This document shows, piece by piece, positions 23,691-57,767 of a DNA stretch of 64,000 nt. How positions within the stretch are numbered: position 1 is the stretch's first letter; every line of letters begins with the position of its first letter. The notes beneath the pieces are model-generated. The model did not search any database, was not told where the DNA came from, and was given only the letters and a program-made list of their open reading frames with translations. This DNA is from a virus: the IMG/VR virus record IMGVR_UViG_3300025133_009446, positions 11,428 to 75,427 of that record; one strand, written 5' to 3'. A program made the position numbers and the translations under genes.

Positions 23691-23930
23691 TTATTCCGAT
23701 TGGGTGTCAACAGTGTCAAAATCAAATGATTGCTGTTGCAAATTCTCTTCAAACTCATCATTAAACTTAACCAATGGCGGGTTCATAACTACCAGCCCCT
23801 GATCCGAGGTTCTAAATCTGAACTCTTTTAAAACAGGAACAATATCACTTTGCTCCATTAAGCTTTTCTGCAGAGCCATCATAACAGCCCCCACAGCCTG
23901 ATCTGACATGTTTACTTCTCTATCGCTCAT
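23691..23930 (-). CDS. Hypothetical protein
   Basis: Start moved to the ATG at 23930 (MSDREVN), which follows SD GGAG. Confidence 0.7.
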   Translation of the reverse strand: MSDREVNMSDQAVGAVMMALQKSLMEQSDIVPVLKEFRFRTSDQGLVVMNPPLVKFNDEFEENLQQQSFDFDTVDTQSE

Positions 23931-24789: not shown

Positions 24790-25674
24790 TTAAAATTCCC
24801 AAAACAACTTTTTAAAACATCTATCAACACCAGCTTCTGCACCGATTTCCGCCTTCCAACCTAAGTCTTGCAAAGGTAAAACATCTGCTAACGTTACCAT
24901 GACATCGCCCTGTCTTTCTTCTATATACTCAAATGCAATATCGGTGAAGTATTTTTGAACAATATCCTTCACTTCATTTAAAGAAATATTGTCGCCAGTT
25001 CCAACATCAAAATGCGCTCCATTGAATTTATCGTCGCGCTCCATTGCAAATATGTTTGCACTGATAGCATCAGAAACGTGCAACATATCTCTTCGTTGTT
25101 CTCCGGTACCTGTAATAAAGGGAGTCTTGCCTTTTCGAATATATTTCATCCAATTCGCAATTGCAGTAGCATATGGACCATCTGCTTCCTGATCTTCCGA
25201 ATAAACATTAAAATAACGCAAACTAACAGTATCAATTCCATAAAGCTCTGAATAAAGCTTGCACTCCATTTCACTAACTAGCTTTTGTAACCCATATGGG
25301 TTTGTTGGTCCATCTCCATCGCCAACAACTGATGAAGAACTAGAATATATTACACGCTTTGCGCCAACATGTTTTGCAAAATTAAGTATATTACTTGTAC
25401 ATAAAACATTATTTTCCATTGTTCGAACAGGGTTTTCCACACTATATGTTACCCTGGGAAAGCACGCTAAGTGAAAAATATATTCAGGCTTGAAATTAAA
25501 ATAATGTGGGTGAAAATCTCCACGCATTGGTTCATTGTATTCGCGAAGATCTTTATTAATATCATGCCCCTCAAATAAATCAATTCCTTGCACTTCGTGT
25601 CCCAATTCTTGTAATGTTTCATACAAATGGGAACCAATGTATCCTCTATGTCCTGTTACTAAGCATCTAGCCAT
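24790..25674 (-). CDS. NAD-dependent nucleotide-sugar epimerase/dehydratase (extended SDR)
   Basis: VTGHRGYIG, YSSSSS, YGLQK, LRYFNVY, GEQRRD. Confidence 0.9.
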   Translation of the reverse strand: MARCLVTGHRGYIGSHLYETLQELGHEVQGIDLFEGHDINKDLREYNEPMRGDFHPHYFNFKPEYIFHLACFPRVTYSVENPVRTMENNVLCTSNILNFAKHVGAKRVIYSSSSSVVGDGDGPTNPYGLQKLVSEMECKLYSELYGIDTVSLRYFNVYSEDQEADGPYATAIANWMKYIRKGKTPFITGTGEQRRDMLHVSDAISANIFAMERDDKFNGAHFDVGTGDNISLNEVKDIVQKYFTDIAFEYIEERQGDVMVTLADVLPLQDLGWKAEIGAEAGVDRCFKKLFWEF

Positions 25675-26507
25675 TTTTCTTCTCCTCCTTCAAAAAATTG
25701 TGGTGGCATATCCCAAAATTGTTTCGCGCTTTTAAGTCTGTTTTCTTGCAACACTACCTCATTGTTCAAAATATATTTCTCATAATCTATAATTGGGTAT
25801 ACATCTAAGTAAGTTTTTAGCGATGCATTGTAAAACTTTGTATCTCTGCCTCTCTCTATGAAATTCTTTAATGCTAAAGAATGTACATTTCTCATCTGAT
25901 GATTGATTTTATAAAGCTTTTCATGAGGAATATCTGCTCGATATGATTTGTCAAAATGATTTGGATCACTTTCGCTACCTCTATCGCCAGTCCAACCCAA
26001 ATCTGCTCCAACAATCACAACCTCACTAAAACCCATGTGGTATGTTAATTGTAAAGCTAGATTCATTGTCGTGCCGGTTTTATCTATCCGTTCGACAATA
26101 TCTGTAGAAAAACATGTTTCTGATATTCTACCATCCATGGGCGGTTTCCTCTCACTCATAGAATCAAACCAATTAATATGCGGGTAATCATCATTTGAAT
26201 CAATTGTGGGCTTAAACATTTTTGCAATAAAAGACGTCGTGTCTGATTCTTTCACAGCGTTACGAACAGAGCCTGTCCACGCCCTGCCCCACTCTGGGTG
26301 TCTAACATTAGTAGACGAAAACAAATAATACGTAGGCTTCCATTCTGGGTTTTTATCATATATAAGAGATATACGATTCATAGCAATTGTATTTTCATTC
26401 TTAAGAAGGTTTAAATTCGTATTCGCCAAGCTTGGTCCATTGGCAATAAGAAATACTCTTTCGCCTTTATGTAAGTCCTTATACTTATCAAATACAGCAT
26501 TTTTCAT
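25659..26507 (-). CDS. DUF115/MAF-like (sialyltransferase-fold) glycosyltransferase
   Basis: FLIANGPSL, IAMNRI, ALQLTYHMGFSEVVIVGAD, DPNHFDKSY, FYNAS; start moved to MKNAVF. Confidence 0.75.
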   Translation of the reverse strand: MKNAVFDKYKDLHKGERVFLIANGPSLANTNLNLLKNENTIAMNRISLIYDKNPEWKPTYYLFSSTNVRHPEWGRAWTGSVRNAVKESDTTSFIAKMFKPTIDSNDDYPHINWFDSMSERKPPMDGRISETCFSTDIVERIDKTGTTMNLALQLTYHMGFSEVVIVGADLGWTGDRGSESDPNHFDKSYRADIPHEKLYKINHQMRNVHSLALKNFIERGRDTKFYNASLKTYLDVYPIIDYEKYILNNEVVLQENRLKSAKQFWDMPPQFFEGGEEKWLDA

Positions 26508-26511
26508 GATA

Positions 26512-27198
26512 TTATTTTTCCCTTGAAGAAACAAGAATTGTTCTTTTATAATTTAAATGACTTTCATCATTATAAAATGTATTGTTATTGAATCCTAATT
26601 CTTTCATTCTATTATTAACATATGTTTGTGTTGGAATTGAGTGAAGTTTATTATATTTATTAGATTTACTTTTATGTCCCCCAGAGACACAAAGATCATC
26701 TAACGAATCGTATGTTTTAAACTCTAAGATTAATAAATTTGAAAGTTTAGACATTTTTTGTAAACATTGTAGCACGTTTGGTATTCTATGTAATAATCCC
26801 AACCCTAAAATCATATCATAATTTTTGTTTTCTTTTAACTCATATAAATCCCCGACTTCAAATTGGACATTATCAAGCTTAAATATTTGTTTTATGAAAT
26901 TCGCCCTTTCGATTCTCAATGGATCTGGATCTATTCCAACAACTTGCATATCATAATCCATTGCGCATTTTACAGAATAATAACCGTCGCTGCATCCAAT
27001 GTCCAAAGCTTTTTTTCCTTTTAAATTTAACTTATCTATTATTGGATTTAATCTAGCCCATTTGTTGATATTGTACCCCGGACTATTAATATCGGTTTTT
27101 CTTGTTTTTATTAAACCTGGGAGATTATATTGATGATTCCAATCTTCCTTTTTGGATAAATCTGAGACTTTCTGTTGTATCCATTTATGATATTCCAT
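26512..27198 (-). CDS. Class I SAM-dependent methyltransferase
   Basis: ALDIGCSDGYYS, VVGID, YDMILGLGLLH. Confidence 0.88.
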   Translation of the reverse strand: MEYHKWIQQKVSDLSKKEDWNHQYNLPGLIKTRKTDINSPGYNINKWARLNPIIDKLNLKGKKALDIGCSDGYYSVKCAMDYDMQVVGIDPDPLRIERANFIKQIFKLDNVQFEVGDLYELKENKNYDMILGLGLLHRIPNVLQCLQKMSKLSNLLILEFKTYDSLDDLCVSGGHKSKSNKYNKLHSIPTQTYVNNRMKELGFNNNTFYNDESHLNYKRTILVSSREK

Positions 27199-27856
27199 TT
27201 ATATATCTCTCCATAATTTTTATAGCAACATACTCATCTAGAAAACCACTTGTAACAGATGGCCATTTATCAACATTTTTAGAACTATATATTTTGCGCG
27301 GTGGTTCAATTCGGTTTTTTTTATCTCGCGGTTTCAAATGTTTCTGTTCCTCATAAACAACCGGTATGGGCAAATCAGGAAATAAAGCAGACAATGTTGC
27401 CACACGATGATTGCCACTGACTACATAAAAATTTTTTCCTGTGTGATTCTCTAAAAAATATCCAGTAATATGACCTTTTTTCCTATCTAAAAAAGCATCT
27501 GGCGTATACCCAAATTCTTTAATAGATAAGACAAGGTTTTTCATTTTATCTATTTGTGCATCAATAAATTTTTTATCTCGTCGCATAAAAGCAACATCCA
27601 CAAACTCTGTGACGGGGCTTGTATGAATCCATGGAAGAAAAATAGATTTATAAGAATATCGCTTTAAATTTTCACCAACGTTGTAAATGTCATATAGTGT
27701 CTTTAAATTAAAAGATTTATAATGATCATGCAAAACAGTATTCTCTAATGTTTGATTAGATTTTAGCAATTGCAACGCCGTTAAGTAACAAGGATTATCA
27801 CCAATAGCAAATGGCAATCTACTTAAATTACATATTTCTTCTTTAAAAATCTTCAT
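27185..27856 (-). CDS. Hypothetical protein with a ParB/sulfiredoxin-like motif
   Basis: LVLSIKEFGY...YVVSGNHRVATL; start moved to MKIFKEE (27856). Confidence 0.55.
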   Translation of the reverse strand: MKIFKEEICNLSRLPFAIGDNPCYLTALQLLKSNQTLENTVLHDHYKSFNLKTLYDIYNVGENLKRYSYKSIFLPWIHTSPVTEFVDVAFMRRDKKFIDAQIDKMKNLVLSIKEFGYTPDAFLDRKKGHITGYFLENHTGKNFYVVSGNHRVATLSALFPDLPIPVVYEEQKHLKPRDKKNRIEPPRKIYSSKNVDKWPSVTSGFLDEYVAIKIMERYINGIS

Positions 27857-28295
27857 AGTTTTCAATATAATCGCTACATATCCCAACACATTGTTGAATA
27901 TCTTCCTTTTTATATTGTGCGACTTCCGGAAGCACACAAATTGAACCTTTTAATATTCTCTTCTTAGGAAAACCCCACATATATCCTTTAGATGTTAAAG
28001 TAACGTCATCTGTTTTGTGAAAAAAACAATGTATCTCTTGAGGTGGCCGAGGATTAATCAATTTCGCCAATGCTTCCGGATTTTTACAATGACACCACAG
28101 TTTATCGTTGTTTAAAAAAGAAATATTTATTTTATATTCAGGCTTGTCATGACCAAGATACAAGCAATTGTTTTTATACCAAACGTCTATCTCCACATTG
28201 TAGCCGGATTTCATAGCCTCTAAAATATAATCAGGAGAATTTTCTCTTTCTGGATTCTTGCCATTAACGTTGCCTCTGTGAGATATCAAAATCAC
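27843..28295 (-). CDS. Short glycerophosphodiester phosphodiesterase-like protein
   Basis: ISHRGN, EN, VEIDVW, LGHD, GICSD. Confidence 0.8.
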   Translation of the reverse strand: MILISHRGNVNGKNPERENSPDYILEAMKSGYNVEIDVWYKNNCLYLGHDKPEYKINISFLNNDKLWCHCKNPEALAKLINPRPPQEIHCFFHKTDDVTLTSKGYMWGFPKKRILKGSICVLPEVAQYKKEDIQQCVGICSDYIENYEDF

Positions 28296-29008
28296 TTATA
28301 GTTCTCCAAAAAAGATCTTAAATCTTCGGGAGTGCCAAGACCACACATCTTGTGCACATAAAATGGAATAAGAGTTTTGCCATCAGCTATTAACTCGTTA
28401 TAAACTGGAGCTATATAAAACTCATTATTAACACGAATATCTTTTTCAATCATTTGTTCTGCATATTTTACAAAATCAGAACCATGGCGGTACCAATAAA
28501 TCCCACATGTTGCAATATTGGATATTGGCTTTTTTTCGGCAACTTCTGTAATGAATCCTCTAGAGTTCGTTTTGACAAAAGACCATTTAGGGTGCACTGC
28601 ATTAAAAGTAAATACCATTGCATCACAATTGGTTAAATTCTTCAATGATCTGAAGTTCTCTGACTCGTAATCAACATATTGATCTGAATTAGCAATAAGT
28701 AAATCATCATCATTATTTATATATTCTCTAGCTAACAATGCGGTACATGCTGCACCCTCAGTTAATTTGTCAACAACAAGATATTTAAAATTATTGTTTG
28801 TTATTTGTGAAAGTGTGCCCAACAAACCTTCATATTCTTCGACATGTTTTTTTCGAATCAAAAAAATATATTCACAATCAAAATCTAAGTTTTCTACAAC
28901 CTTTTGAATCATGGGCTTTCCATTAACATCAATAAGCGGCTTTGGGAAGGTGTAACCTTCCTTGACAAACCTACTTCCTTCGCCAGCCATTGGAATCAAT
29001 ATTTTCAT
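28292..29008 (-). CDS. Sugar/polyol-phosphate nucleotidyltransferase
   Basis: IPMAGEGSRF, PKPLI, TEGAACT, NSDQ, AEKKPIS, EFYIAPVYN, GLGTPED. Confidence 0.88.
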   Translation of the reverse strand: MKILIPMAGEGSRFVKEGYTFPKPLIDVNGKPMIQKVVENLDFDCEYIFLIRKKHVEEYEGLLGTLSQITNNNFKYLVVDKLTEGAACTALLAREYINNDDDLLIANSDQYVDYESENFRSLKNLTNCDAMVFTFNAVHPKWSFVKTNSRGFITEVAEKKPISNIATCGIYWYRHGSDFVKYAEQMIEKDIRVNNEFYIAPVYNELIADGKTLIPFYVHKMCGLGTPEDLRSFLENYK

Positions 29009-29622
29009 TTTAAAACCTCTTTAAACAATTCAATTGTCACTTCATCAGCATTTTTAACAGAAATTACATGGCATCCAGACTCTTTCGCTGCTTGTAAACC
29101 TTTGGGTGAATCTTCCACTATTATAGTGTTCTTGTTAGAAATATCAAGTTCTTTAAGTGTTTTTATATAACCCTCTGGATCTGGTTTAGGTTTTTCAACA
29201 TCTTGATTGGTTAGTACCATGTCGAAATAATTCAAAATACCAGTTTTATCTAACATCATATATGCTGTTTCTCTAATGCTGTTTGTAAAACATGCGACTT
29301 TCAAATTTTTATCTTGAACCAACCATTCTAATAAATCAATTTTTTCTTGCCTAATTTTTGCATTGGATTCAATAATTTCTTTCGTTTTTTCTTGTTTTAA
29401 ATCATAAACATCTATATGCTCATCTTCACTTAATATATTTATCTCTGTGAGTGCTGCTAGTTTAACTTTTGTTGGAAGCCCATTATATTTGTTATAGTGG
29501 TCTTCTAAAGAAATTTCATAATTGCACACCTCTTTTAAAGCTTCGTTTAGAGCAACTCGATGCCACTCACATGCATCAACCAAGACACCATCTAAATCGA
29601 ATATAACTAATTCAACACTCAT
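29005..29622 (-). CDS. HAD-superfamily phosphatase (beta-PGM-like)
   Basis: FDLDGVL, TNS, KPKPDPEGY, VEDS. Confidence 0.9.
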   Translation of the reverse strand: MSVELVIFDLDGVLVDACEWHRVALNEALKEVCNYEISLEDHYNKYNGLPTKVKLAALTEINILSEDEHIDVYDLKQEKTKEIIESNAKIRQEKIDLLEWLVQDKNLKVACFTNSIRETAYMMLDKTGILNYFDMVLTNQDVEKPKPDPEGYIKTLKELDISNKNTIIVEDSPKGLQAAKESGCHVISVKNADEVTIELFKEVLK

Positions 29623-29623
29623 A

Positions 29624-30517
29624 TTACACCAAATAATTTTTTAAATCTAGATTCTTTATATCCTTTTCGAAATACAGATATTTTATCACATTTTTAATGC
29701 GCGAGCTTCTTATATCCGGGGGATTGCTTATAAACTCGCCGCTCCAATTCTTTACCCAACCTTGCTTTGTGGGGTTAGATTTCCACGTTCCACTCCACTT
29801 TGTATAAAAATAGTTCCAAGAATATTCCTTATATATCCCACTTCGGGTTTTCCATATACTTTGATGCTCCGCGTCATCTGCTCTTCTTTTTAAAGTGTGA
29901 TCACCAGCGAATCCAGGCTCTTCTATAAAATTCCTGTCGATAATGGTATCCAACTCTAACGCACTCTCATTGTTTAATTCTAAACCATGAAGCGTATCAT
30001 TAATACATGATTTTTCCTTATTAAAAATAAGCGCCCTAATCCAGTAATCTGCTTCTTTATATTGCACACCAAAAAAGTTTTCATCCCACATGCCAATATT
30101 TTTAATAGCTTCAGGTGTATAGCTAACCAAATTGTCTCCATATTTTCCAACCACAAAATTAAACTTCTCATGCATCTTCATCAGATTGCTATACCAATTA
30201 GGGTGCACCGATGTATCGTTCTGTAATGTAACCACATACTCACAATCAGGCTTATTAAGACTTTTAAAACCGTTGATTAAAGCTTGGTTCCAGTTTTCTG
30301 CTAGATTTCCATTTGACCAATCGGGGCGCAAAACATTGTGTAGTACGTTAACCTTGTTTTCATATTCTGGCTTTAAATAAAACTCAGAATGATTGTTAAT
30401 AATATTAACCTCTGTATTTGGAATACTTGAAAAATCCGAAGCAAAAAGCTTCTCCAACGTATCATTTAGTATGTCAGAGCGCTTATAAGTCACAATATAG
30501 ATTTTCATTTTTTTCAT
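29624..30517 (-). CDS. Glycosyltransferase, GT-A (GT2-like)
   Basis: IYIVTYKR, NWNQAL, LQNDT, IGMWDENF...EADY. Confidence 0.75.
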   Translation of the reverse strand: MKKMKIYIVTYKRSDILNDTLEKLFASDFSSIPNTEVNIINNHSEFYLKPEYENKVNVLHNVLRPDWSNGNLAENWNQALINGFKSLNKPDCEYVVTLQNDTSVHPNWYSNLMKMHEKFNFVVGKYGDNLVSYTPEAIKNIGMWDENFFGVQYKEADYWIRALIFNKEKSCINDTLHGLELNNESALELDTIIDRNFIEEPGFAGDHTLKRRADDAEHQSIWKTRSGIYKEYSWNYFYTKWSGTWKSNPTKQGWVKNWSGEFISNPPDIRSSRIKNVIKYLYFEKDIKNLDLKNYLV

Positions 30518-30518
30518 A

Positions 30519-31445
30519 TTATACAATCCCGGCAATTCTCAATTGCTCCATACAAGAATTCCAATTAGTAAAACGGAACCCTTTATCATCAATATATGCC
30601 ACCGCTCTTGGCTTTTCGGCTGTAACCTTTGTTACAAGCTTATCCATATCATATTTCTTAAGCCATTCCCACACCAACTCTATACCAGTTTTACCATCTA
30701 CCAAACCGCGATCAGGCTTTGCTTTACAGGTATACATGATAACATTGTATTTTTCAGACAACGCTTGCAAAGCCTCTCTAGAGCCAGGAACTGGTTCATC
30801 ATAAATTGTTCCGTCATAGTACCCTTTTGAGCACTTATGAATCACACCGTCGAAGTCGATGCCGATTTGATAAGTTTCGTCATCATTAGAGTGAAGACGA
30901 GGGCTCGCGGGTTGTTCATTCGGAACGGTCTTTATCATTGGTGATTCGAACCCTGAAGCGTTCATTAATCGATGAAAAAGCATGATGGTCAGCACTTCAG
31001 AAGAATAATAATGTGTTGCACCTGTTGATACTTCTATGCTACCCCATTCATTGTTGACCGATTGAGATGTAATGTAACATGTATCACATCCGGTTGATGC
31101 TGCAAATATCAAGGCAGCATCAACATCGGGTGATGCTCCGGATGATGACACGCCGATGACTAACGGCATTTTATTCGAATTAGAAAGTCGAGGTCTGAGC
31201 CATTCTATCAGCCACTTTTGATAATCAAAATCGCCATGCCAGATAGAAACTGTATCAGTATCTGGAGCACATATTAATTTCTTGCCTCCAGTGAGCCTTG
31301 TAAGATCTGTAGCTATGTGTCGGCAAATCGACAAATTTCCGCCATGACATGCCAAGTATACTTCGCTGTGTCTTTCGAATAATTTTTCAATATCTTTCCA
31401 CTCATCCGAGAGAATTGTTTTTTCATATAGATGTTCTACATTCAT
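30519..31445 (-). CDS. SIS-domain phosphosugar isomerase (GmhA-like) fused to a HAD-like phosphatase
   Basis: N-half HGGN...HIATDL...IGVSSSGASPDV; C-half IGIDFDGVIH...YT...KP...YIDDKG. Confidence 0.75.
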   Translation of the reverse strand: MNVEHLYEKTILSDEWKDIEKLFERHSEVYLACHGGNLSICRHIATDLTRLTGGKKLICAPDTDTVSIWHGDFDYQKWLIEWLRPRLSNSNKMPLVIGVSSSGASPDVDAALIFAASTGCDTCYITSQSVNNEWGSIEVSTGATHYYSSEVLTIMLFHRLMNASGFESPMIKTVPNEQPASPRLHSNDDETYQIGIDFDGVIHKCSKGYYDGTIYDEPVPGSREALQALSEKYNVIMYTCKAKPDRGLVDGKTGIELVWEWLKKYDMDKLVTKVTAEKPRAVAYIDDKGFRFTNWNSCMEQLRIAGIV

Positions 31446-32335
31446 TGTTTGCTCTCTTTTCTCTTGTCGCTAATCTCTCCTAGACAACCCACAAGACCAA
31501 GCCCAATATCAATATACTCTGATGCTAACATTTTTTTAGGAATATCTTCGCCATATTTATACGGAGTAGTTTGATAATGTGAAGTAATCAGACTTTTATT
31601 TTTGCTTTGATTATATTTTATTTCCACATCTTTATTCATTATTTCAGATATAATTGTTAATATTCCTGATGTTCGAAACGATCGTTCGCCTGTAAGGATC
31701 ATACAACGATTTTTATATTTAGAGCCTAAAGACTTTATAGTTAAGTCTGCTGCATCAGACGCATGAATATAATCGCGGCGTTCGCACCCTGTCCCTTGAT
31801 ATGTTATTTTACCATCAAGGGCTTGATCTAAAAATCTATAAACACTGTTGTTTTTATCTGCGCCTGGACCGTAAATTGTTCCATATCTTAATATTGTATA
31901 GTTAAGATTATAATACTTCTTATAGTCTTTTGTAAGAGACTCACAGACATTTTTTGTAGAGCGATAAACTCCTCCTAAACCAGACTCAGAATAAACACTA
32001 CTAGCCAAGACAAATCTATTTACTTTAGCTTTTGCACACTCATCTAAAATAATTGTGTTACCCAAAATATTTGTTTCTACTGCTTTAACTGGATCATCAA
32101 TACATGCTTCAATATCTGCAATTGCTGCATAATTAAAAACTATATGCGCGTCTTTTACGATACTTCTAACATCTTCCCTGTTAAGAACATTTCCTACTAT
32201 TGAATACTTCTTTTTTAGATCTGGTGAAGGAGCTTGATCAAATGAGTAGACAACATATTTGTTTTCCCTTATCAGTCTTCGTACTGTATATCTTCCAAGA
32301 AAGCCGGCGCCGCCAAATACAACTACTTTTTTCAT
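31442..32335 (-). CDS. NAD-dependent epimerase/dehydratase (extended SDR)
   Basis: FGGAGFLG, ASS, YRSTK, LRYGTIYGPG, RDYIH. Confidence 0.9.
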   Translation of the reverse strand: MKKVVVFGGAGFLGRYTVRRLIRENKYVVYSFDQAPSPDLKKKYSIVGNVLNREDVRSIVKDAHIVFNYAAIADIEACIDDPVKAVETNILGNTIILDECAKAKVNRFVLASSVYSESGLGGVYRSTKNVCESLTKDYKKYYNLNYTILRYGTIYGPGADKNNSVYRFLDQALDGKITYQGTGCERRDYIHASDAADLTIKSLGSKYKNRCMILTGERSFRTSGILTIISEIMNKDVEIKYNQSKNKSLITSHYQTTPYKYGEDIPKKMLASEYIDIGLGLVGCLGEISDKRKESKQ

Positions 32336-33330
32336 TATATAACCCTGTTAATCATATCTCTTGATTCAAGATAGTTGTTAACTGATTTTGCTGCGCCTAC
32401 TTCCATTTCAAGCCTACTAATTTTTGAGCAACTCCCGAGATGAGGTGACATCAGAATATTATTAAGAGACAATAGATTTCCATCATAGGGTTCTTTTTCA
32501 AAAACGTCAATTGATGCAGATGCGTCACTATTTTTTGTTAGCCAATCGTACAAAGCAGCTTCATCAACTATGCCGGCGCGAGACGTGTTAATTATGCATG
32601 CATTTTTCTTGAGCAATGATAGCTCTTTTGTTCCGATGTAACCTATGTTAGCTTCATTTAGTGGGATGTGCAAAGAGACGATATCGCACTCCGCTAAAAT
32701 TCTATTTTTAGATGACCACTCGTATGAGGGAAATATTGCTCTAGATGAATCAGTGTCTGTGTACAATATTCTTTTTGGCTGTAGCGACTCCAGCTTTCTT
32801 AAGACTGATGTTCCTATTCTTCCAACCCCTATAATACCAATAGTACAGCTTGACAATTCTCTTCCGATAATTCGGGACCACCTGCCAGCCTTCATTTCAG
32901 AATCAACAATCCATGTTTTTCTTAGTAATGATATTATTTGCCCTATTGTTAACTCTGCGACTGCATTAGTAGGAGCATCTGGTGTATACGTTACACATAT
33001 TCCTCTCTTTTTACATTCATCTAAATCAACAGAATCTAGACCAATTCCTACTCTGGATATCATCCTAAGATTTGGGCATGCGTCTAAAATGCTGACGTCA
33101 TATTTTTCAGTTCCGGCAACAATAATTTCAGGCCGTTTATTCTGAAGTACTTGCAAAAGCTCTTCTCGCGAGTATTTTCTTCCCGTTTCATTGTACGAGA
33201 CTTTCATATTATTGTCTAGACACAGACGTTCCAACAATTCTCGGGGATCGCTATTTTTTGACCCATACGGAAATGTCGTAACAACAATGTTTGACAATTT
33301 TTTGTCATCAATATTTTCAAAATCAAGCAT
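32335..33330 (-). CDS. D-isomer-specific 2-hydroxyacid dehydrogenase (SerA-like, no ACT domain)
   Basis: SRVGIGLDSVD, AVAE, GIIGVGRIG, SLHIP, INTSR, DVFEKEP, SPHLG; start moved to MLDF (33330). Confidence 0.88.
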   Translation of the reverse strand: MLDFENIDDKKLSNIVVTTFPYGSKNSDPRELLERLCLDNNMKVSYNETGRKYSREELLQVLQNKRPEIIVAGTEKYDVSILDACPNLRMISRVGIGLDSVDLDECKKRGICVTYTPDAPTNAVAELTIGQIISLLRKTWIVDSEMKAGRWSRIIGRELSSCTIGIIGVGRIGTSVLRKLESLQPKRILYTDTDSSRAIFPSYEWSSKNRILAECDIVSLHIPLNEANIGYIGTKELSLLKKNACIINTSRAGIVDEAALYDWLTKNSDASASIDVFEKEPYDGNLLSLNNILMSPHLGSCSKISRLEMEVGAAKSVNNYLESRDMINRVI

Positions 33331-34033
33331 TTTGCATTTCTTTATATGATTCAATTAAGGCAGTTGTATCCATACCCACTGCAATTATACCATAGTCATC
33401 ATATTTTTTAATCTCTTTTTTAACATCTTTCGGAATGTGAACTGCCATTTTTTTGATTGATACCATATTTTTTACCTTTTCTACCGCTTCTAGATACAAA
33501 GAGTTATTAAATTGTCCAGGTATACCAAGACTAGTAGACAAGTCATAAGGACCAATCATGTAAAAGTCAAAACCCTTAATGTCGCCAATGTTTTCAACAC
33601 CCCTTCTAGTTTCAATTTGAGCAACTATTATGGGCGGTTTTGCTATTAAAGCTTTATTATTTCCCCACTTGTTTTGTCTAACTAGTCCTAAGCCACGTCT
33701 ACTAGAGGTTGCGTAACCTTCTTTACCATAAGCTACTGGGTATTTGCAATATTCATGAATTTGTTCGGCTTGTTTTCTAGTTTCTACTGTTGAAAAAATT
33801 AACCCAGTTGCCCCAGCATCTAAACAATATTTAACCATGTGTAGATCTAGATTTCCTAGTCGAACAAAGCACTGTTTATTGTTGGCTGTGACTATTTGTA
33901 TACAGCTATATAACGTTTCATTATTAAAGCAACCGTGTTCAGTGTCGATTACAACACCATCTAATTTATTTTGACAAAGTATATCAGATACAACAGTTGA
34001 TGGTATTTGCTGCCATGCCAATCTCCTTACCAC
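33323..34033 (-). CDS. HpcH/HpaI-family pyruvate aldolase (2-keto-3-deoxy-acid aldolase)
   Basis: VIDTEHG, FVR, LDAGATG, AQIET, IGPYDLSTSLG. Confidence 0.88.
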   Translation of the reverse strand: MVRRLAWQQIPSTVVSDILCQNKLDGVVIDTEHGCFNNETLYSCIQIVTANNKQCFVRLGNLDLHMVKYCLDAGATGLIFSTVETRKQAEQIHEYCKYPVAYGKEGYATSSRRGLGLVRQNKWGNNKALIAKPPIIVAQIETRRGVENIGDIKGFDFYMIGPYDLSTSLGIPGQFNNSLYLEAVEKVKNMVSIKKMAVHIPKDVKKEIKKYDDYGIIAVGMDTTALIESYKEMQNA

Positions 34034-34719
34034 TATAAAAATCTCCTATATTTTTTTGTTTTGGTGCTGCTTTGTATTACGTTCACAAATTCCCAATCAT
34101 CTTCAGTATCGATATCTAAGCTCTCCAAAAAACTTGTAGGATAAAAATATGGATTTTTACCAATTCTATTTCCACTATTTAACACAATGTCGGAATAGAA
34201 CATATAAAATAAAGAGTTCTCTTCATAATATACTGGTAGATCTTGTGTCTGTTGCAGAATCATTGGATTGTGATTGACGGGGCACACACCGTATTCCTCT
34301 TTCCTCCAAAATCTTTTTTGAGTTGATATGCAAGAGGTGATAGAATCATATCCTTCATCAAACTTTTTCGCCGCTGCAGTTAGCGTTGCGACACCTAAAA
34401 ACGGAGAAGTGACGTGAATCTGGCATATTATATCGTTTTCTACACTTTGTTGTTCATGAACAATGAAGTGTTTAATTAACTTACACACAGAAGTATTATG
34501 ATCGACAAGCGCTGAGCTTCTTTTATAAGCAGTAACATGTGATAGGTTTTTATCTTTTTTTACTTCCTTGATGATTTCTTCACTGTCTGTGTCAACATAT
34601 ACTTCAAAATCTTTTAGTTTATAAAGCGTATGTTTATATAACGGCAAATTTGCAAATAATCTAAAGTTCTTTTTTGGCACCCGTTGTGATTGCTCTTTTA
34701 TTGGAATAAAAATTTTCAT
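34033..34719 (-). CDS. Acylneuraminate/ulosonate cytidylyltransferase (NeuA/KdsB-like)
   Basis: IPIKEQSQRVPKKNFR, VDTDS, HVTSPF, TQDL...YEENS, DIDTEDDW. Confidence 0.9.
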   Translation of the reverse strand: MKIFIPIKEQSQRVPKKNFRLFANLPLYKHTLYKLKDFEVYVDTDSEEIIKEVKKDKNLSHVTAYKRSSALVDHNTSVCKLIKHFIVHEQQSVENDIICQIHVTSPFLGVATLTAAAKKFDEGYDSITSCISTQKRFWRKEEYGVCPVNHNPMILQQTQDLPVYYEENSLFYMFYSDIVLNSGNRIGKNPYFYPTSFLESLDIDTEDDWEFVNVIQSSTKTKKYRRFL

Positions 34720-35465
34720 TTTATAGCATCACTAAAAAGCTTCTTGTCGAGCTTTTCTAAATTTAAAATCACATCTAATACACTGTCTAATTTAACAGAA
34801 GGGTTGTCTCTCAAAGTATCTTTAGCATATTGCCATATGTTTTTTTGTACATGTCTCTTTGAGTTAAATGCCATCGTAGCAAATTCATCTTCTGTTACGT
34901 TTTTTTCTTTTTCAACACCAGACTTACAGCCGGGTATAAAACCATCCAAATAAAAACTAAATCCATATATTGACAACATGCTTGGATTAAAATTTAATAA
35001 GTCATATATTGCAAGAAATCCAGTATTTGGTCTACATTGAACCTTTTTTGCCAATTCTGTATGCATCTGATGATCAACAATTCTAAGTGGTAATACTTTA
35101 ATTATATGTTTAACAGTTTTCATATTAACCATCTCATGAAACGTTGTTCTTTGGGAGATCCCTTTATAATCAGATTGTGGAGGGGCGCACACGAACTTAA
35201 CACCATAATCATTTTTTAACTCAAGAACGTCTAACTTCCCAGCATTTTGTGCTGTTTCTATCAAACAAGAATATAAAACATCGGTTTTTACCCCCACATC
35301 AGCTGAATATTGTTTAGTGGTTTCAATGCTTCTATTGATTCTAACAACCACGTCATGTTGATCAATTTCTTCACCCAAACAAGAGCCAACCATATATTTT
35401 GCTGGACCGACCAAAGCAACTGTTTTTCCGTGTATAATGCTTTTAAAAAGAGAATTATCAATCAT
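34716..35465 (-). CDS. GT29-like (sialylmotif) glycosyltransferase
   Basis: Sialylmotif L-like VALVGPA...GEEIDQHDVVVRIN...DVGVKT; S-like RPNTGFLAI...LSIYGF; a His near the C-terminus. Confidence 0.75.
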   Translation of the reverse strand: MIDNSLFKSIIHGKTVALVGPAKYMVGSCLGEEIDQHDVVVRINRSIETTKQYSADVGVKTDVLYSCLIETAQNAGKLDVLELKNDYGVKFVCAPPQSDYKGISQRTTFHEMVNMKTVKHIIKVLPLRIVDHQMHTELAKKVQCRPNTGFLAIYDLLNFNPSMLSIYGFSFYLDGFIPGCKSGVEKEKNVTEDEFATMAFNSKRHVQKNIWQYAKDTLRDNPSVKLDSVLDVILNLEKLDKKLFSDAIK

Positions 35466-36043
35466 TTTCTTTTTTTAAATATCCCAACCTTATTTTCAAC
35501 AATGTTATAAAGATTCTCTTTGCCAAAAAAATGACTAGCATATTTCTCTTCAATAAGCCGACCCATATCATCAACTACGCAAATACCATTATTCTTTAAA
35601 AGATAGTGTGCCGTATAAATGCTTTGCATCCTACCTGGACCTTTATATGGTCTAGGGGGGTTGTGTCCAAGAGGTCCGTCGACAAGAATCATATCCCACT
35701 CTATACTAGTAACTTCGTCTGGAAGCTTCATTTTAAGCTTCTCGATATCAAACCCAATATCAGCATGCTCTTGTGCTTTAGTATCGTACTTCACTGGATG
35801 TATTTTAATATTGACGTCTGGATCTTTAAATTTTTCAATCCATTCTAAATCATCCTCCAGAAACACAGTCTTGCCGCCAGCATTTATCTGCTCCCAAATA
35901 TAAGAGTCCTCTCCTAATCCGAAAACTAAAAAATTACATGGAGACAATAAGTCCAAAACGTAACCAACATTCATATATTGAGTCTGAGACATTAATCCCT
36001 TACCAGAAGCTTTCATATCTTTTATAAGCGTTTTAAAATTCAT
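35462..36043 (-). CDS. DUF579 / Polysacc_synt_4 (plant GXM/IRX15-like) polysaccharide O-methyltransferase
   Basis: PCNFLVFGLG...W..IN.GG.TVFLEDD..WI and EWDMILVDGP.G...PGRMQSIYTA match the recalled plant DUF579 consensus. Confidence 0.8.
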   Translation of the reverse strand: MNFKTLIKDMKASGKGLMSQTQYMNVGYVLDLLSPCNFLVFGLGEDSYIWEQINAGGKTVFLEDDLEWIEKFKDPDVNIKIHPVKYDTKAQEHADIGFDIEKLKMKLPDEVTSIEWDMILVDGPLGHNPPRPYKGPGRMQSIYTAHYLLKNNGICVVDDMGRLIEEKYASHFFGKENLYNIVENKVGIFKKRK

Positions 36044-36044
36044 C

Positions 36045-36788
36045 CTAATATTCCATAAAGTTCTCTTTGCAAATTTTTAACGCTTCATCAAGCGATTCAA
36101 TTTCATATGTACCTTTGTTTATTCGTGGATCAGCATGCATGTGGTATATTCTTGGCGCAAGATGTTCTTCTCCAAACTCATGATGAAAAATATGTTGTTT
36201 TTCTCTATTCGCCTTACTTCTAATATTATATTCTACAGGGAAAACATAGAACTGTAACCCCTCTTGAATGGCTTTCCAAAGAGAAATTCTGAATGAAGCC
36301 TGATCCCAAGGACAATAATGCCGATAATGGTAAAAACACTCTCTCCAATCCTTAAAAAGCTTTAAGACTTTTTCGTTTTTCTTGAATACGAGCACGCCAG
36401 TATTAATTTCAGAAAACGCATAAGGAATATTTCTATACTCAGGCATGACAGTTGAATATTTCTTTCTTTTTCTCGCCAAATCATGAGTGCCGGCAAAATC
36501 AACGTTGTCTAGCAACTCAAACAGATCCTCTATGTTGCGATCAACTATAGTGTCTGTATCTAAAAACAACGTCTGCTCATAGGGAGTTAAAGCTATATAA
36601 TCTATTTTAGGACGCAAATGAGCGACTTTAATTATCTTAACCTCATCAATATACTCAGACTCAATCTGTTTATCTATAAACGCAGTTATGTGTAAGTCTG
36701 GATTATGTTTTTTAACAGACTCTGCAGAGAACAACATCTCTTTAATAAAATGCTTACCAAAAGCAATATACAATACACCTTTATTCAT
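36045..36788 (-). CDS. Glycosyltransferase, GT-A (GT8/GT77-like)
   Basis: TPYEQTLFLDTD, EINTGV, WDQASFR, EYN, H. Confidence 0.8.
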   Translation of the reverse strand: MNKGVLYIAFGKHFIKEMLFSAESVKKHNPDLHITAFIDKQIESEYIDEVKIIKVAHLRPKIDYIALTPYEQTLFLDTDTIVDRNIEDLFELLDNVDFAGTHDLARKRKKYSTVMPEYRNIPYAFSEINTGVLVFKKNEKVLKLFKDWRECFYHYRHYCPWDQASFRISLWKAIQEGLQFYVFPVEYNIRSKANREKQHIFHHEFGEEHLAPRIYHMHADPRINKGTYEIESLDEALKICKENFMEY

Positions 36789-37776
36789 AACTTATCCCCA
36801 ATATGTCATTATACAATTTAGAAGCCCATGCATATGGACTATATAATTTATCAAATTCTCTCTTTGCGCGATCTGCCATTTTTTGCCTTAATCTAAAGTC
36901 TTGTAACTTTAATATACCTTTTTTCCAGCCTTCGTAGTTGTTTGCAATAATCCCGCATTCAGGATCACCCATAATATGAAAATTACTAGGAGTAAAATCA
37001 GCAATCACAGGGATCCCCAATTGATGGAAAACAAAAGCCCTACCTGCATTAGATTTGTTTTTCATTCTCACTATAAAATCCGTGTTATATAAACCAAGAT
37101 CTGTAGAGGTTTTATGCTTGCTTAAGTCCAATGGTATATGAGTCACATTGGGAACAATACCAATATCGCAACTTAACAAATCTTGTTTTATGGTTTTAAT
37201 GTTCCACGGTTTCATAATAATGTTTTCAATATTTGGTTTTCCAACCTTCCATTTAAATGATGTGTTGGACGTCACAACAAACAATTCTATATCACACGCT
37301 TTGTTAACCTCTTCTATAGCTCTTTTAAGATTAGGCGCAAACTTGCTTAAATGCGGATAATGTCCATGAAAACCTATCCTTAACCTAGATTTCTTAGAAT
37401 GAGTTTTATAGTCATCGCCTTGATACATTTTTTCAATCAAAGGAAAAAGGAACACATTCTTATAATGAGATAAACTATCCATCTCTTCTATGGAGCCAAC
37501 AATTACAAAGTCTATTGGTAGGTTTCTAGCGTCGGCTGCCAAATTTATAACACCCACTTTCTTATTTGGATATGCTTTCTTAATGCCAATGGCAGTTGCA
37601 ACATCGTTTTTGCCGCAGATAACAACATCATAATCTAATACATCTGTCTTATTGGTTGCTATCTCAGATTGATATCCACAATCACGAAAATAATCATTTA
37701 AATCATTAACCCAAATTCTATAAGAACCAACGCTAATATCACGGTTGTTGGAAACAAACAAAACTTTCATAATCAT
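36781..37776 (-). CDS. Glycosyltransferase, GT-B (GT4-like)
   Basis: GSYRIW, IGFHG, CDIGIVP, KSNAGR, LGIPVIA. Confidence 0.75.
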   Translation of the reverse strand: MIMKVLFVSNNRDISVGSYRIWVNDLNDYFRDCGYQSEIATNKTDVLDYDVVICGKNDVATAIGIKKAYPNKKVGVINLAADARNLPIDFVIVGSIEEMDSLSHYKNVFLFPLIEKMYQGDDYKTHSKKSRLRIGFHGHYPHLSKFAPNLKRAIEEVNKACDIELFVVTSNTSFKWKVGKPNIENIIMKPWNIKTIKQDLLSCDIGIVPNVTHIPLDLSKHKTSTDLGLYNTDFIVRMKNKSNAGRAFVFHQLGIPVIADFTPSNFHIMGDPECGIIANNYEGWKKGILKLQDFRLRQKMADRAKREFDKLYSPYAWASKLYNDILGISYE

Positions 37777-37922
37777 AACTTTCCATAAATCACGACTTGA
37801 TGATTCGGATTTCCACTAGCAGCATTTGGAACTATTAATTCATTAAGATTTAGAATAGCCTTTTCTTCTAAAGTAGAATGTTTTTCCCATTCAACCCATG
37901 ATAATATTTCTGCATTATTCAT
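37773..37922 (-). CDS. Small ORF (49 aa), unknown or gene remnant
   Basis: Below the ORF-track cutoff; MNNAEILSWVEWEKHSTLEEKAILNLNELIVPNAASGNPNHQVVIYGKL; exactly fills the gap and overlaps both neighbours. Confidence 0.55.
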   Translation of the reverse strand: MNNAEILSWVEWEKHSTLEEKAILNLNELIVPNAASGNPNHQVVIYGKL

Positions 37923-38829
37923 TAATTGTCTCTTTTATAAAGTTCCTGTACTTCTCTGCAACTGTTTTCATATTATAATCTACTTCAATATTATTTTTCA
38001 CCTTTTTATAAAAATCCATCTTAGGTGGTTTATATAACTCAACCGGCTCAAAATCCCACTCATCTTCTTCAATTACAACCGCATCTAATCCAGCTATTTC
38101 TTTTGTTCCACCAGCAGAAGAACATATAATTTGGCACCCGCTAGCGCGTGCATCAACAACCACGTTAGGACAATGATCGAGCCAAGCCAAATGGATAAAA
38201 TAATCTGCGCGTTTATAGAGAGCGGTAAGATACCTTATGTTTAGTTCGCCAACATAAAAAAGATTAGGAGTTCTCGCAATTTTTGCTTGTTCAAGATATT
38301 CAAGGTTTCCTCCAGCAACAACCAAACAATCATTTTTCGAAGAATGCTTTAAAAAATATTTGATATTTTCATTCAACCTTTTGTGAGGACGCCAAGACGA
38401 AGCACAACACCAAACATGTTCGTAATTATCCAGCATCCCTCGCAAGGGCTTGATTGATTCAATATGCTCTACATCAGCACCATTGTGTATGACAGTAGAA
38501 TTCTTGTGTTCTCCAAAATATTTAGTTATAAGCTGTTTGTTGAACTCAGACTGAAATATAACCCCATCTGCATTATCATAAGTTCTCTTTATATTTCTAT
38601 TCTGCTTTTTATAGTCTTGTGCCTTATTAAAGTAGATTCCATCTAACCTCTGGAATAGCGGCACATCATCAAACTGTCTTCTTTGAGATTCTATAAAACA
38701 CAACCTAGCATCTGGCTTTTTAGAGCCATCGGTGTCCGCATCTATATATTTAATCAATTTAGAAGCGAAGTGGTTTGGTCCAGAGGTGCTCTGTGTGTTG
38801 ACATTTTCAAAATGAATATTCATATTCAT
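37915..38829 (-). CDS. Glycosyltransferase, GT4
   Basis: SGPNHF, QRLDG, IFQSEF, VIHNG, WRPHKRL, DHCPNVVVDARASG. Confidence 0.85.
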   Translation of the reverse strand: MNMNIHFENVNTQSTSGPNHFASKLIKYIDADTDGSKKPDARLCFIESQRRQFDDVPLFQRLDGIYFNKAQDYKKQNRNIKRTYDNADGVIFQSEFNKQLITKYFGEHKNSTVIHNGADVEHIESIKPLRGMLDNYEHVWCCASSWRPHKRLNENIKYFLKHSSKNDCLVVAGGNLEYLEQAKIARTPNLFYVGELNIRYLTALYKRADYFIHLAWLDHCPNVVVDARASGCQIICSSAGGTKEIAGLDAVVIEEDEWDFEPVELYKPPKMDFYKKVKNNIEVDYNMKTVAEKYRNFIKETINE

Positions 38830-39785
38830 CCTTTGTAGATTTTTAATGCCCAAAAGGCAGGATTTTCTATCTCTTTTTGCAGATCTGTTAATAACGCAGC
38901 GTGCAGCAATTCTCTATATTGTTCAGGATTAGAATTTCTTTTATCCCCCAAATTATCTAAATATATTGGCTTTGTAATGTAGTCAAAGTGCAATTTATTA
39001 GAAGCCTCTCCGCATATTTTATATAATTCTACATCACAATCACTAAACAAGTCAACTATTTTATTTATTGCAAAATCTCCATATTGTCTATATCCGTGCA
39101 AAAGGTATAAATCAAGAGAAGCTGGACCTGGGAAAAGGTGCACTTGTATACAAGGCTCGTCCTTTTGATACATAAACTTCTTTAACTGCTTAAATGTACC
39201 TAAATCGTTTTTTATATGTTCAATCGCAGACTGAGACATGAGAAAGTTTATATTTGTTGGGATATCAAATATTGCATCACTATCTAGATTTGCCTGTTCG
39301 AAGCTTACATTAATATCCTTTTCCTTACCCCAGCTAATGTTGTCATGCCACTTAGGAGATTGATATATATCCAAGCCCTTATATGAAGTTATAATGCCAT
39401 TAGACCAATTCTGCAGTTTCTTGCAATACCCACCGGTACCGCAACCAATATCCAATATATTGACTTCTCCTAAATTTTTCTTTATATCACCCCAAGGCAA
39501 GTTCATCCAAAACATGTCACCCATAGCTCTGCTAGGTGATGGGGTACCCTTTATTTTGTTCCAAAAATTATTAAATTTTTCTTTTTCTAAAGTAAAGTCT
39601 GTGCTCAACAATTTATCTGTTAGCAATTTGTTGCTTATATGATTCCACAACAAATACAAAGTTTTTTCTGTTGAAGATAGTGAAGGACTATCTCCATTTA
39701 TAGAGTGAATGGATGTCGACATGTCATCCTGTAGTCCGACACTATAATTTTCAATTAAAAAATTAAAATTGTTATATTCTTTCAT
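38826..39785 (-). CDS. Class I SAM-dependent methyltransferase
   Basis: ILDIGCGTG, GLD, SQSAIEHI. Confidence 0.85.
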   Translation of the reverse strand: MKEYNNFNFLIENYSVGLQDDMSTSIHSINGDSPSLSSTEKTLYLLWNHISNKLLTDKLLSTDFTLEKEKFNNFWNKIKGTPSPSRAMGDMFWMNLPWGDIKKNLGEVNILDIGCGTGGYCKKLQNWSNGIITSYKGLDIYQSPKWHDNISWGKEKDINVSFEQANLDSDAIFDIPTNINFLMSQSAIEHIKNDLGTFKQLKKFMYQKDEPCIQVHLFPGPASLDLYLLHGYRQYGDFAINKIVDLFSDCDVELYKICGEASNKLHFDYITKPIYLDNLGDKRNSNPEQYRELLHAALLTDLQKEIENPAFWALKIYKG

Positions 39786-41406: not shown

Positions 41407-41408
41407 TT

Positions 41409-43978: not shown

Positions 43979-43992
43979 TGTACTTCTCCAAT

Positions 43993-49233: not shown

Positions 49234-49250
49234 ATGATCTCCTATATCAG

Positions 49251-57714: not shown

Positions 57715-57767
57715 AAAAACCTCCAAGTTAATATGATCATATTACTATATTTTAGATTAAACGTTTA

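Follow-up and report, generated by a model that had tools for sequence, protein, structure and literature searches.

Introduction

How could a phage assemble a sialic acid-like sugar when it encodes enzymes that would activate and attach such a sugar, and none of the synthases that are expected to build it? To our knowledge, every textbook pathway that leads to Kdo or to sialic, legionaminic or pseudaminic acid includes a phosphoenolpyruvate (PEP)-dependent synthase of the KdsA/NeuB type. The question is posed by a block of six genes at positions 30,519 to 35,465 of a 64,000-nucleotide stretch of viral DNA, referred to here as the window, which corresponds to bases 11428-75427 of a linear, 75,427-bp viral contig from IMG/VR (IMGVR_UViG_3300025133_009446). 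The block specifies a GT29-like (sialyltransferase-like) transferase, a cytidylyltransferase, an HpcH/HpaI-type pyruvate aldolase, a D-2-hydroxyacid dehydrogenase, a short-chain dehydrogenase/reductase (SDR) and a fusion of an SIS with a HAD domain. An earlier note on this DNA, drawn from its letters and translations, had read the six genes as an apparently complete pathway to a sugar acid activated with cytidine monophosphate (CMP), in which the aldolase takes the place of NeuB or KdsA. Having compared the block with its relatives in phages and bacteria, we favour, with a probability of roughly 0.55, a route that would need no PEP and would lead to a 3-deoxy-2-ulosonic acid activated with CMP, following the logic of the Kdo and Kdn pathways with non-orthologous parts.

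Results

The six genes and their active sites

All six open reading frames (ORFs) lie on the minus strand (Table 1), each overlapping or abutting the next by 1-32 bases. Family calls were judged against the curated Pfam cut-offs, which five of the six proteins exceed; the sixth, the SIS-HAD fusion, was placed by profile, fold and motifs, and the description of the block as six contiguous, overlapping genes of the named families was thus borne out. The protein that would stand in for the synthase matches HpcH_HpaI (PF03328) at 4.2e-18 (65.9 bits, cut-off 25) over model positions 16-219 of 221, and its alignments to HpaI (PDB 7et8, 2.8e-18), YfaU and GarL are full-length. Its residues Arg58, Glu141 and Asp164 align to the catalytic arginine and the two metal ligands of HpaI (7et8), and these three, together with His33, are invariant in 20 homologues. 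The scores against the equivalog models of the characterised enzymes are far under the cut-offs (89.2 against 368.8 bits for HpaI, 72.8 against 406.75 for GarL and 64.2 against 441 for RhmA). An assignment to PEP mutase, and hence to phosphonate metabolism, was rejected because no PEP_mutase model is matched and the HpcH catalytic residues are intact.

The gene product next to the aldolase matches CTP_transf_3 (PF02348) at 4.8e-14 (53.1 bits, cut-off 22.6) and has mouse CMP-Neu5Ac synthetase as its nearest PDB entry (1qwj, 1.8e-12), with VPKKN (PxKN) and DIDTEDDW (DIDxxxDW) aligning to the mouse enzyme. Its best NCBIfam model is PseF, at 78.4 bits far under the cut-off of 205.7, and the KdsB subfamily models give 22.5 bits (cut-off 193) and 21.4 bits (cut-off 255); with scores under the equivalog and subfamily cut-offs it is not assigned as an orthologue of PseF, KdsB or NeuA, and we describe it as a predicted CMP-ulosonate synthetase of NeuA/PseF-like type. 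The transferase encoded beyond it exceeds the cut-off of Glyco_transf_29 (PF00777; 1.8e-12, 47.7 bits, cut-off 23), a family of animal sialyltransferases that is otherwise typical of animals and plants, and matches ST6Gal1 and ST3Gal1 in the PDB over sialylmotif L. An alignment of seven phage GT29 homologues shows that motif L (VGPxxY..G..ID.HD.VVR.N) and motif S (CRPNTGF...GFSFY) are kept and that His205 and Gln207 are invariant; no glutamate is found at +5, where motif VS (H-x4-E) has one. No transmembrane segment or hydrophobic type II anchor was detected in the protein, which is predicted to be soluble and is a candidate CMP-ulosonate transferase. Related phage loci hold this domain in other arrangements: a 532-aa ORF of L014, L015 and L018 (6831-8429) appears to join a distant 2-hydroxyacid-dehydrogenase-like part (~30% identity) to a GT29-like domain, and in L003-L005 and L026 the domain lies within a 636-aa protein.

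At the other end of the block, the SIS-HAD protein reaches only 16.5 bits against Pfam SIS, under the cut-off of 25, and its HAD part (the C-terminal 125 residues) had no match in Pfam or in the PDB profile search. A ten-sequence profile built from the protein and nine phage homologues matches the phosphoheptose isomerase GmhA in the PDB (5i01, 1.1e-7), and the AlphaFold model (pLDDT 81.7) shows an SIS fold with template-modelling (TM) scores to GmhA of 0.66-0.68. The phosphate-binding SSSGxS loop and His43 are invariant in the alignment. The protein reaches no GmhA model and is not assigned as a GmhA orthologue: an aspartate occupies the position aligned to the catalytic glutamate of GmhA, and the second catalytic histidine is not alignable. 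The HAD domain modelled alone (pLDDT 87) was ranked by Foldseek closest to AfhF of phage HY126 (E 7.5e-4, TM 0.55), followed by the T4 Pnkp phosphatase, GmhB and KdsC, HAD motifs I-IV (DFDGV, T/S, K, DD) are invariant among the homologues, and phrog_1238 matches residues 186-303 at 7e-13. Profile, fold and motifs together argue that the predicted SIS-HAD fusion is correctly assigned, and from fold and motifs the HAD domain would act as a phosphatase.

Two side observations concern this protein. The label of phrog_1238, 'phosphoheptose isomerase', looks misplaced, because the family matches the HAD domain and leaves the SIS domain unmatched. The HAD-like domain (30522-30899) is also very common in viral contigs, with at least 501 matches, and is found either joined to SIS or alone, as a protein of ~120 aa (loci L089-L129).

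The remaining two proteins are oxidoreductases. The 2-hydroxyacid dehydrogenase matches 2-Hacid_dh_C at 5e-44 (150.2 bits) and the catalytic domain at 6e-22 (78.2 bits), reaches no NCBIfam equivalog, and is a candidate for an accessory redox step; the SDR is a candidate for an accessory step of oxidation, reduction or epimerisation.

NeuB and KdsA are absent from the contig and from complete relatives

No match to NeuB (PF03102), KdsA (PF00793), NeuC (PF02350) or NanA/DHDPS (PF00701) was found on the 75,427-bp contig, in line with the statement of the earlier note that NeuB, NeuC and KdsA are missing from the island. Because the contig is a fragment, estimated by CheckV to be ~42% complete, we also searched three related phage genomes that carry the aldolase and are rated 100% complete by CheckV (184-201 kb, one with terminal repeats). 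None of the three matched NeuB or KdsA, and in all three a CTP_transf_3 gene is present in the same island as HpcH. The note had named a neuB or kdsA gene in another part of the genome as evidence against its reading; none appeared on the contig or in the complete relatives.

A four-gene unit in related phages

A scan of IMG/VR for the aldolase gave 28 viral loci (42-63% identity), whose gene maps were drawn by tblastn. A cytidylyltransferase of the window's type stands beside HpcH in 20 of the 28, and a Pfam model adds two further cases of the pairing in complete genomes; in most phage loci it is located 5' of HpcH. SIS-HAD directly follows HpcH in 11 of the loci. The block of GT29, synthetase, HpcH and SIS-HAD recurs among the phages, as in L001 and L002, which have the four genes in this order with neither dehydrogenase present. 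Only the window and L027 have the 2-hydroxyacid dehydrogenase and the SDR inserted between HpcH and SIS-HAD. Because the dehydrogenase pair is restricted in this way, the conserved phage unit is, on gene order, four genes (GT29, cytidylyltransferase, HpcH and SIS-HAD) with the pair as an insert, and not the six that the earlier note had proposed as a set. The aldolase family is also well represented in ocean metagenomes, with 979 matches below 1e-10.

A profile scan of IMG/VR with SIS-HAD returned at least 501 matches; examination of the best 80 loci identified 43 with the full fusion. The commonest direct neighbour of the fusion is a CTP_transf_3-like gene, which is present in 35 of the 43 and often directly adjacent, while HpcH is present in 18, NeuB in two and KdsA in one. 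Four HpcH-less loci (L054 at 9998-13120 and likewise L059, L086 and L088) hold SIS-HAD and the cytidylyltransferase followed by a gene of the FAA-hydrolase family and an SDR. The FAA-hydrolase-family gene (Pfam 2e-41) is present in six loci. Some members of this family decarboxylate oxaloacetate to pyruvate enolate, and the protein could offer an alternative way to form the carbon-carbon bond. As a general substitute for the condensing enzyme it was rejected, since it occurs in one group of HpcH-less loci and in another there is none.

The bacterial version of the cassette

The bacterial survey covered one genome per GTDB species, in which the best aldolase matches are 26-33% identical to the window's protein, and yielded 19 loci from Desulfovibrio, SAR86, SAR324, Omnitrophota, Myxococcota, Acidobacteriota, Nitrospirota and Alphaproteobacteria. 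A CTP_transf_3 gene lies at most 2.6 kb from HpcH in 17 of these, usually as the next gene, and the two exceptions are contigs that end nearby. In the cultured Desulfovibrio cuneatus DSM 11391 (L033), whose locus also contains an SDR and a 2-hydroxyacid dehydrogenase, the cytidylyltransferase exceeds the cut-off of the KdsB subfamily model (323 bits, cut-off 255). In a maximum-likelihood tree, 16 viral aldolases form one clade (100/100 support) on a long stem, and E. coli GarL and RhmA fall among the aldolases of the bacterial cassettes; the link to a cytidylyltransferase therefore spans deep branches of the family.

Homologues of the window's 2-hydroxyacid dehydrogenase stand beside HpcH in 13 of the 19 loci (30-39% identity), the best bacterial matches of its SDR (34-41%, E 1e-47 to 1e-60) adjoin HpcH in L029, L030, L033, L035 and L045, and a Gfo/Idh/MocA oxidoreductase occurs in 11 loci. 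The two dehydrogenases of the window are thus, as judged by homology and position, regular members of the bacterial version of the cassette. One operon, L047, runs 2-hydroxyacid dehydrogenase, KdsC-type HAD, HpcH, Gfo, GmhA-like SIS_2, cytidylyltransferase, its HAD scoring above the TIGR01670 cut-off (114 bits against 107), and L041 likewise has SIS_2 and HAD inside the HpcH operon. Five cassette-bearing genomes have, outside the cassette, a canonical KdsA and one or more additional full-length CTP_transf_3 genes, so the bacterial cassette looks like a second pathway and not the housekeeping one. Within ~20 kb of its HpcH cassette, the Caenispirillum genome (L035) additionally carries a second KdsA paralogue (327 bits) and three more CTP_transf_3 matches, two of them strong and one short, and in this genome the aldolase route and a PEP-dependent route may share one polysaccharide region.

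A proposed route without PEP

In the route that we propose, the SIS domain would convert a ketose phosphate of central metabolism into an aldose phosphate, which the class II aldolase, working in the synthetic direction, would join to pyruvate to give a 3-deoxy-2-ulosonate phosphate. The fused HAD domain would then strip off the terminal phosphate, and the NeuA/PseF-like enzyme would form the CMP-sugar; both steps would draw the reversible aldol reaction forward. The soluble GT29-like enzyme, and perhaps a Maf-like protein of the same island, would transfer the sugar, in the cytoplasm, to an acceptor that is either a glycan or a protein, with the 2-hydroxyacid dehydrogenase and the SDR as an added tailoring pair, probably for redox steps or epimerisation. 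We infer from families and gene order which substrates are used, how the steps follow one another, in which direction the aldolase runs and what accepts the sugar. We favour this route because isomerase, phosphatase and CMP-synthetase make up three of the four steps to Kdo and Kdn, and we place HpcH at the condensation because it lies between them in gene order and because of the 2-keto-3-deoxy acid chemistry of its characterised relatives: YfaU/RhmA and GarL act on 2-keto-3-deoxy sugar acids. The earlier note had SIS-HAD supply a free aldose to the aldolase. The retained phosphate-binding loop of the SIS domain and the predicted phosphatase role of the HAD domain make this less likely than a route through sugar phosphates, in which isomerase, aldolase and phosphatase would act in that order.

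What the product would be is indicated weakly by the same enzymes. Because the synthetase is NeuA/PseF-like and the isomerase GmhA-like, the product leans slightly towards a C9 acid (Kdn-like, from a hexose 6-phosphate) or a C10 acid (from a heptose 7-phosphate) over Kdo. That it should be an ulosonic acid new to any glycan, put on virion proteins in the cytoplasm by the soluble GT29-like and Maf-like transferases, we regard as doubtful; such an acid may be a C10 3-deoxy-deculosonic acid from glycero-manno-heptose 7-phosphate, or it may be a Kdn-type C9 acid that the dehydrogenase pair oxidises or epimerises and to which the GXM-like enzyme, encoded directly upstream of GT29, adds an O-methyl group.

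Several observations weigh against the proposed route. Among the 43 loci with the full fusion, 22 have no HpcH, NeuB or KdsA within 10 kb, and the Pfam reading of one HpcH-less locus (cupin, SDR, synthetase, SIS-HAD, SDR) reveals no condensing enzyme. Since SIS-HAD and the cytidylyltransferase occur without these enzymes, the aldolase is not obligatory: the constant phage pair appears from these maps to be SIS-HAD plus synthetase, the aldolase being one of several partners where a partner is encoded at all, and host KdsA may do the condensation in phages without an aldolase. Most bacterial cassettes have the 2-hydroxyacid dehydrogenase and lack SIS and HAD, and reduction of the 2-keto group by that dehydrogenase would destroy the site that accepts CMP. 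Thermodynamically, the PEP-driven reaction is far more favourable than an aldol condensation with pyruvate. The tightest phage neighbour of HpcH is often a small GDPD-like gene of the surrounding island and not the synthetase. Finally, the contig is a fragment of a phage genome, and the word 'complete' that the earlier note applied to the pathway has to be given up. Its claim that a pyruvate aldolase replaces NeuB or KdsA is supported by the linkage, the active site and the absence of both synthases in complete relatives; the 22 fusion loci without HpcH within 10 kb speak against it.

Other accounts of the block

The frequency of SIS-HAD and CTP_transf_3 in phage islands that lack aldolase, NeuB and KdsA alike also speaks for a different account, which we hold to be unlikely. 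The phage SIS, HAD and cytidylyltransferase, in roles like those of KdsD, KdsC and KdsB, would boost a CMP-Kdo-type flux of the host, whose KdsA or NeuB would carry out the condensation, and HpcH and the dehydrogenases would form a side branch in which a small keto or hydroxy acid is made or recycled, for example as a 2,4-dihydroxy acid substituent or in the salvage of pyruvate and aldehyde. An aldolase followed by a D-2-hydroxyacid dehydrogenase would indeed be a chemically natural pair for 2,4-dihydroxy acids, and in D. cuneatus NeuB and another two cytidylyltransferases are encoded 4-6 kb upstream of HpcH. However, HpcH adjoins an extra cytidylyltransferase of its own in 17 of the 19 bacterial loci, including genomes with a separate CTP_transf_3 gene and KdsA, the minimal phage block of L001 and L002 has HpcH without either dehydrogenase, and Pfam detects no acyl-activating or acyl-transfer enzyme within the block.

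Improbable in our estimate is that SIS-HAD serves a route to a nucleoside diphosphate (NDP)-sugar, of GmhA/GmhB or Afh type, together with the MurU/RmlA-like nucleotidyltransferase and the beta-phosphoglucomutase-like HAD encoded beyond the block (Table 1), and that the aldolase draws its aldehyde from elsewhere. The N-terminal domain is most like GmhA, and the best fold match of the C-terminal domain is AfhF, then GmhB. AfhF of phage HY126 is an arabinose-1,5-bisphosphate phosphatase that acts with an arabinose 5-phosphate isomerase and AfhE in a uridine diphosphate (UDP)-arabinose route for DNA arabinosylation (PMC13326640), and a nucleotidyltransferase and HAD of the window's kinds accompany HpcH in many phage loci. 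Yet the match to AfhF is modest (TM 0.55), SIS-HAD comes right after HpcH in L001 and L002 with no nucleotidyltransferase in 19-20 kb, its commonest direct neighbour is the CTP_transf_3 gene (35/43) and not a nucleotidyltransferase, no anomeric kinase was found in the island by Pfam, and the bacterial loci L047 and L041 hold SIS_2 and HAD inside the HpcH operon. Very improbable, finally, is that the aldolase cleaves a 2-keto-3-deoxy sugar acid of the host during infection (Kdo, 2-keto-3-deoxygluconate or similar) and that its linkage to glycan genes is incidental. The characterised members of the HpcH family that are known to us (HpaI, GarL and RhmA) are all catabolic, but the phage protein scores far under the cut-offs of these catabolic equivalogs, its linkage to a cytidylyltransferase holds across phages and at least six bacterial phyla, and there are no dehydratase, transporter or kinase partners like those of the E. 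coli gar and rhm operons.

Source of the DNA and integrity of the block

The IMG/VR record, together with a baseplate wedge protein (phrog_219), PhoH, a PurA/PurZ-like enzyme and other phage families in the window, identifies the contig as a fragment of a tailed phage (myovirus), with all long ORFs of the window on the minus strand. The baseplate protein is ~30% identical to that of the nearest cultured phages, and among 50,697 GenBank phage records no relative was found of the block by megablast or of the aldolase by tblastn, the sole aldolase match being an unrelated one of 28% in two Staphylococcus phage records. The 4.9-kb block recurs near-identically in sequencing runs of at least 20 marine metagenome studies, and every gene junction between 29000 and 37000 is bridged by contigs of four runs other than the likely source, because of which an assembly chimera was rejected.

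Run X5 includes a contig (depth 9.4) in which 18 other letters connect 29643 to 32326; it is a natural variant without GT2a, SIS-HAD and SDR. Other runs show loose ends at 30796, 32295/32335 and 33300, at or near gene boundaries, which suggests shuffling of modules among related phages.

The surrounding glycan island

The block lies in an island of genes for glycan enzymes (Table 1) that also includes a UDP-sugar dehydrogenase, SDRs, three methyltransferases, a nucleotidyltransferase, a HAD protein and GT2-, GT4- and GT8-like transferases. None of its ~23 proteins has a hydrophobic 19-residue segment, and Pfam detects no flippase, polymerase, ABC transporter or priming transferase in the island; glycan assembly would for these reasons be entirely cytoplasmic, as fits glycosylation of a protein or of a host intermediate. 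The GXM-like protein, whose domain is of plant type, could possibly O-methylate the acid sugar or a glucuronic acid, and its gene accompanies GT8-like and GT29 genes in L001, L014-L020, L024, L077 and L085. The Maf-like protein is a candidate for a second CMP-ulosonate transferase of the island; it matches phrog_4603, 'alpha-2,3-sialyltransferase', at 2.7e-5 and is 59-68% identical to homologues in L001, L077 and L085.

A companion set of four genes adjoins the block and accompanies HpcH in ~19 of the 28 viral loci and in none of the 19 bacterial ones. It probably makes a second building block, NDP- or phosphodiester-linked. Its GDPD-like product is a virus-only protein of 150 aa with an HRG...E.D motif, for which the ESM Atlas gives a weak GDPD lead (0.85); for the two unassigned genes of the island the Atlas holds only viral 'hypothetical' clusters. 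A homologue of the 250-aa protein at 27185-27937 directly follows SIS-HAD in L001 and occurs in L077 and L085 too, and the protein could be a nucleotide-binding or kinase-like partner.

Elsewhere in the window, the tag of a tmRNA may offer a clue to the host of the phage, the PurA/PurZ-like protein, if PurZ-like, may point to adenine modification of the phage, and the call of a tRNA-Tyr is probably a false positive.

Table 1. Positions of the six-gene block, the glycan island and other features in the window
Feature	Position	Strand	Basis or remark
Glycan island, ~20 kb, ~23 co-directional genes	23920..44002	-	Pfam; all predicted soluble
UDP-sugar dehydrogenase	23920-24789		
MptE-like/DUF115 (Maf-like) protein	25659..26534	-	PF01973, 3.5e-9, above cut-off
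250-aa protein	27185-27937		No Pfam match; weak ParB_N-like fold in Atlas model
Companion set of four genes (GDPD-like, nucleotidyltransferase, HAD, GT2)	27843-30535		
MurU/RmlA-like nucleotidyltransferase	28292-29008		
Beta-phosphoglucomutase-like HAD	29005-29622		
SIS-HAD fusion: GmhA-like SIS isomerase (residues ~1-170), capless HAD-fold phosphatase (~183-308), both predicted	30519..31445	-	Profile, fold, motifs
Extended SDR (epimerase/dehydratase family), 297 aa	31442..32335	-	Pfam Epimerase, 1.6e-34
D-2-hydroxyacid dehydrogenase (phosphoglycerate dehydrogenase/glyoxylate-reductase-like), 339 aa	32335..33354	-	Pfam, both domains
Class II (metal-dependent) HpcH/HpaI-type pyruvate aldolase, 236 aa	33323..34033	-	Pfam PF03328
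NeuA/PseF-like cytidylyltransferase, 228 aa	34033..34719	-	Pfam CTP_transf_3 (PF02348)
GT29-like (sialyltransferase-like) transferase, 249 aa	34716..35465	-	Pfam PF00777
GXM/IRX15-type (DUF579) methyltransferase-like protein, directly upstream of GT29	35462..36043	-	PF21729, 2.1e-34
tRNA-Tyr call, anticodon ATA	39671-39755	+	ARAGORN; inside minus-strand methyltransferase gene
tmRNA	49250-49564	-	ARAGORN; tag ANDNVELDYALAA
PurA/PurZ-like adenylosuccinate-synthetase homologue	56701-57726		phrog_1211, 3.4e-69

Discussion

The proposed route shares its five-step logic with the canonical CMP-Kdo pathway: an SIS-fold isomerase, condensation with a C3 keto acid, a HAD phosphatase that is small and capless, activation by a CTP_transf_3 enzyme, and a transferase dedicated to the sugar. 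It differs in that a class II HpcH pyruvate aldolase takes the place of the PEP-dependent KdsA (DAHP_synth_1), a GmhA-like (SIS_2) isomerase that of KdsD, a NeuA/PseF-like synthetase (22 bits to KdsB) that of KdsB, and a GT29-like transferase that of GT30, and in the fusion of isomerase with phosphatase. With the Kdn and sialic acid pathways it has in common GT29 and a synthetase whose nearest solved relative is the vertebrate CMP-Neu5Ac synthetase, as well as a weak fold similarity (rank 50) of the HAD domain to Kdn-9-phosphate phosphatase; it differs from them in having no NeuB-family synthase and no NeuC and in its short GT29 protein (249 aa) without a membrane anchor. The phage aldolases resemble HpaI, GarL and RhmA (YfaU) in fold, in the Arg/Glu/Asp/His active site and in the expected chemistry on 4-hydroxy-2-keto (2-keto-3-deoxy) acids, but those enzymes are encoded beside dehydratases and transporters, and the phage proteins beside cytidylyltransferases and in a long-branch clade of their own.

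The phage UDP-arabinose route and the GmhA/GmhB heptose route likewise combine an SIS isomerase with a minimal HAD phosphatase, but both depend on an anomeric kinase together with a nucleotidyltransferase, and their product is an NDP-sugar, whereas here the constant partner is a synthetase of the CMP type and no kinase is seen. For the dehydrogenase pair, which probably retailors the acid, a precedent is given by the prophage proteins EpaA and EpaB, which epimerise host-made pseudaminic acid (PMC12053666): they too are phage-borne oxidoreductases that are linked to a CTP_transf_3 domain and retailor an ulosonic acid, although their families are unlike those of the window, EpaA being a fusion of CTP_transf_3 with an aldo-keto reductase and EpaB a classical SDR. 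Literature searches that combined HpcH/HpaI aldolases with ulosonic or sialic acid or with cytidylyltransferases found no paper on such a route, and a SugarBase preprint describes previously undescribed higher-carbon CMP-ulosonic acids in Magnetospirillum with no mention of an aldolase. A CMP-ulosonate route based on an aldolase is thus apparently unpublished.

If our reading is right, a class II pyruvate aldolase would be standing in, as a non-orthologous enzyme, at the key condensation step of ulosonic acid synthesis, genome surveys keyed on NeuB and KdsA would miss producers of acidic sugars, and the enzymes would be useful as biocatalysts for making CMP-ulosonates from cheap pyruvate. The cassette is common in uncultured marine myoviruses, with hundreds of aldolase homologues in Tara and other ocean data, and many bacterial phyla have a related one. 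The GT29-like enzyme and the ~20 soluble glycan enzymes around it raise the idea of heavily glycosylated virions or of remodelling of the host surface. Were a new ulosonic acid attached to the virion proteins, a reading that we regard as doubtful, abundant marine myoviruses would wear an acidic, sialic acid-like coat made by a PEP-independent pathway.

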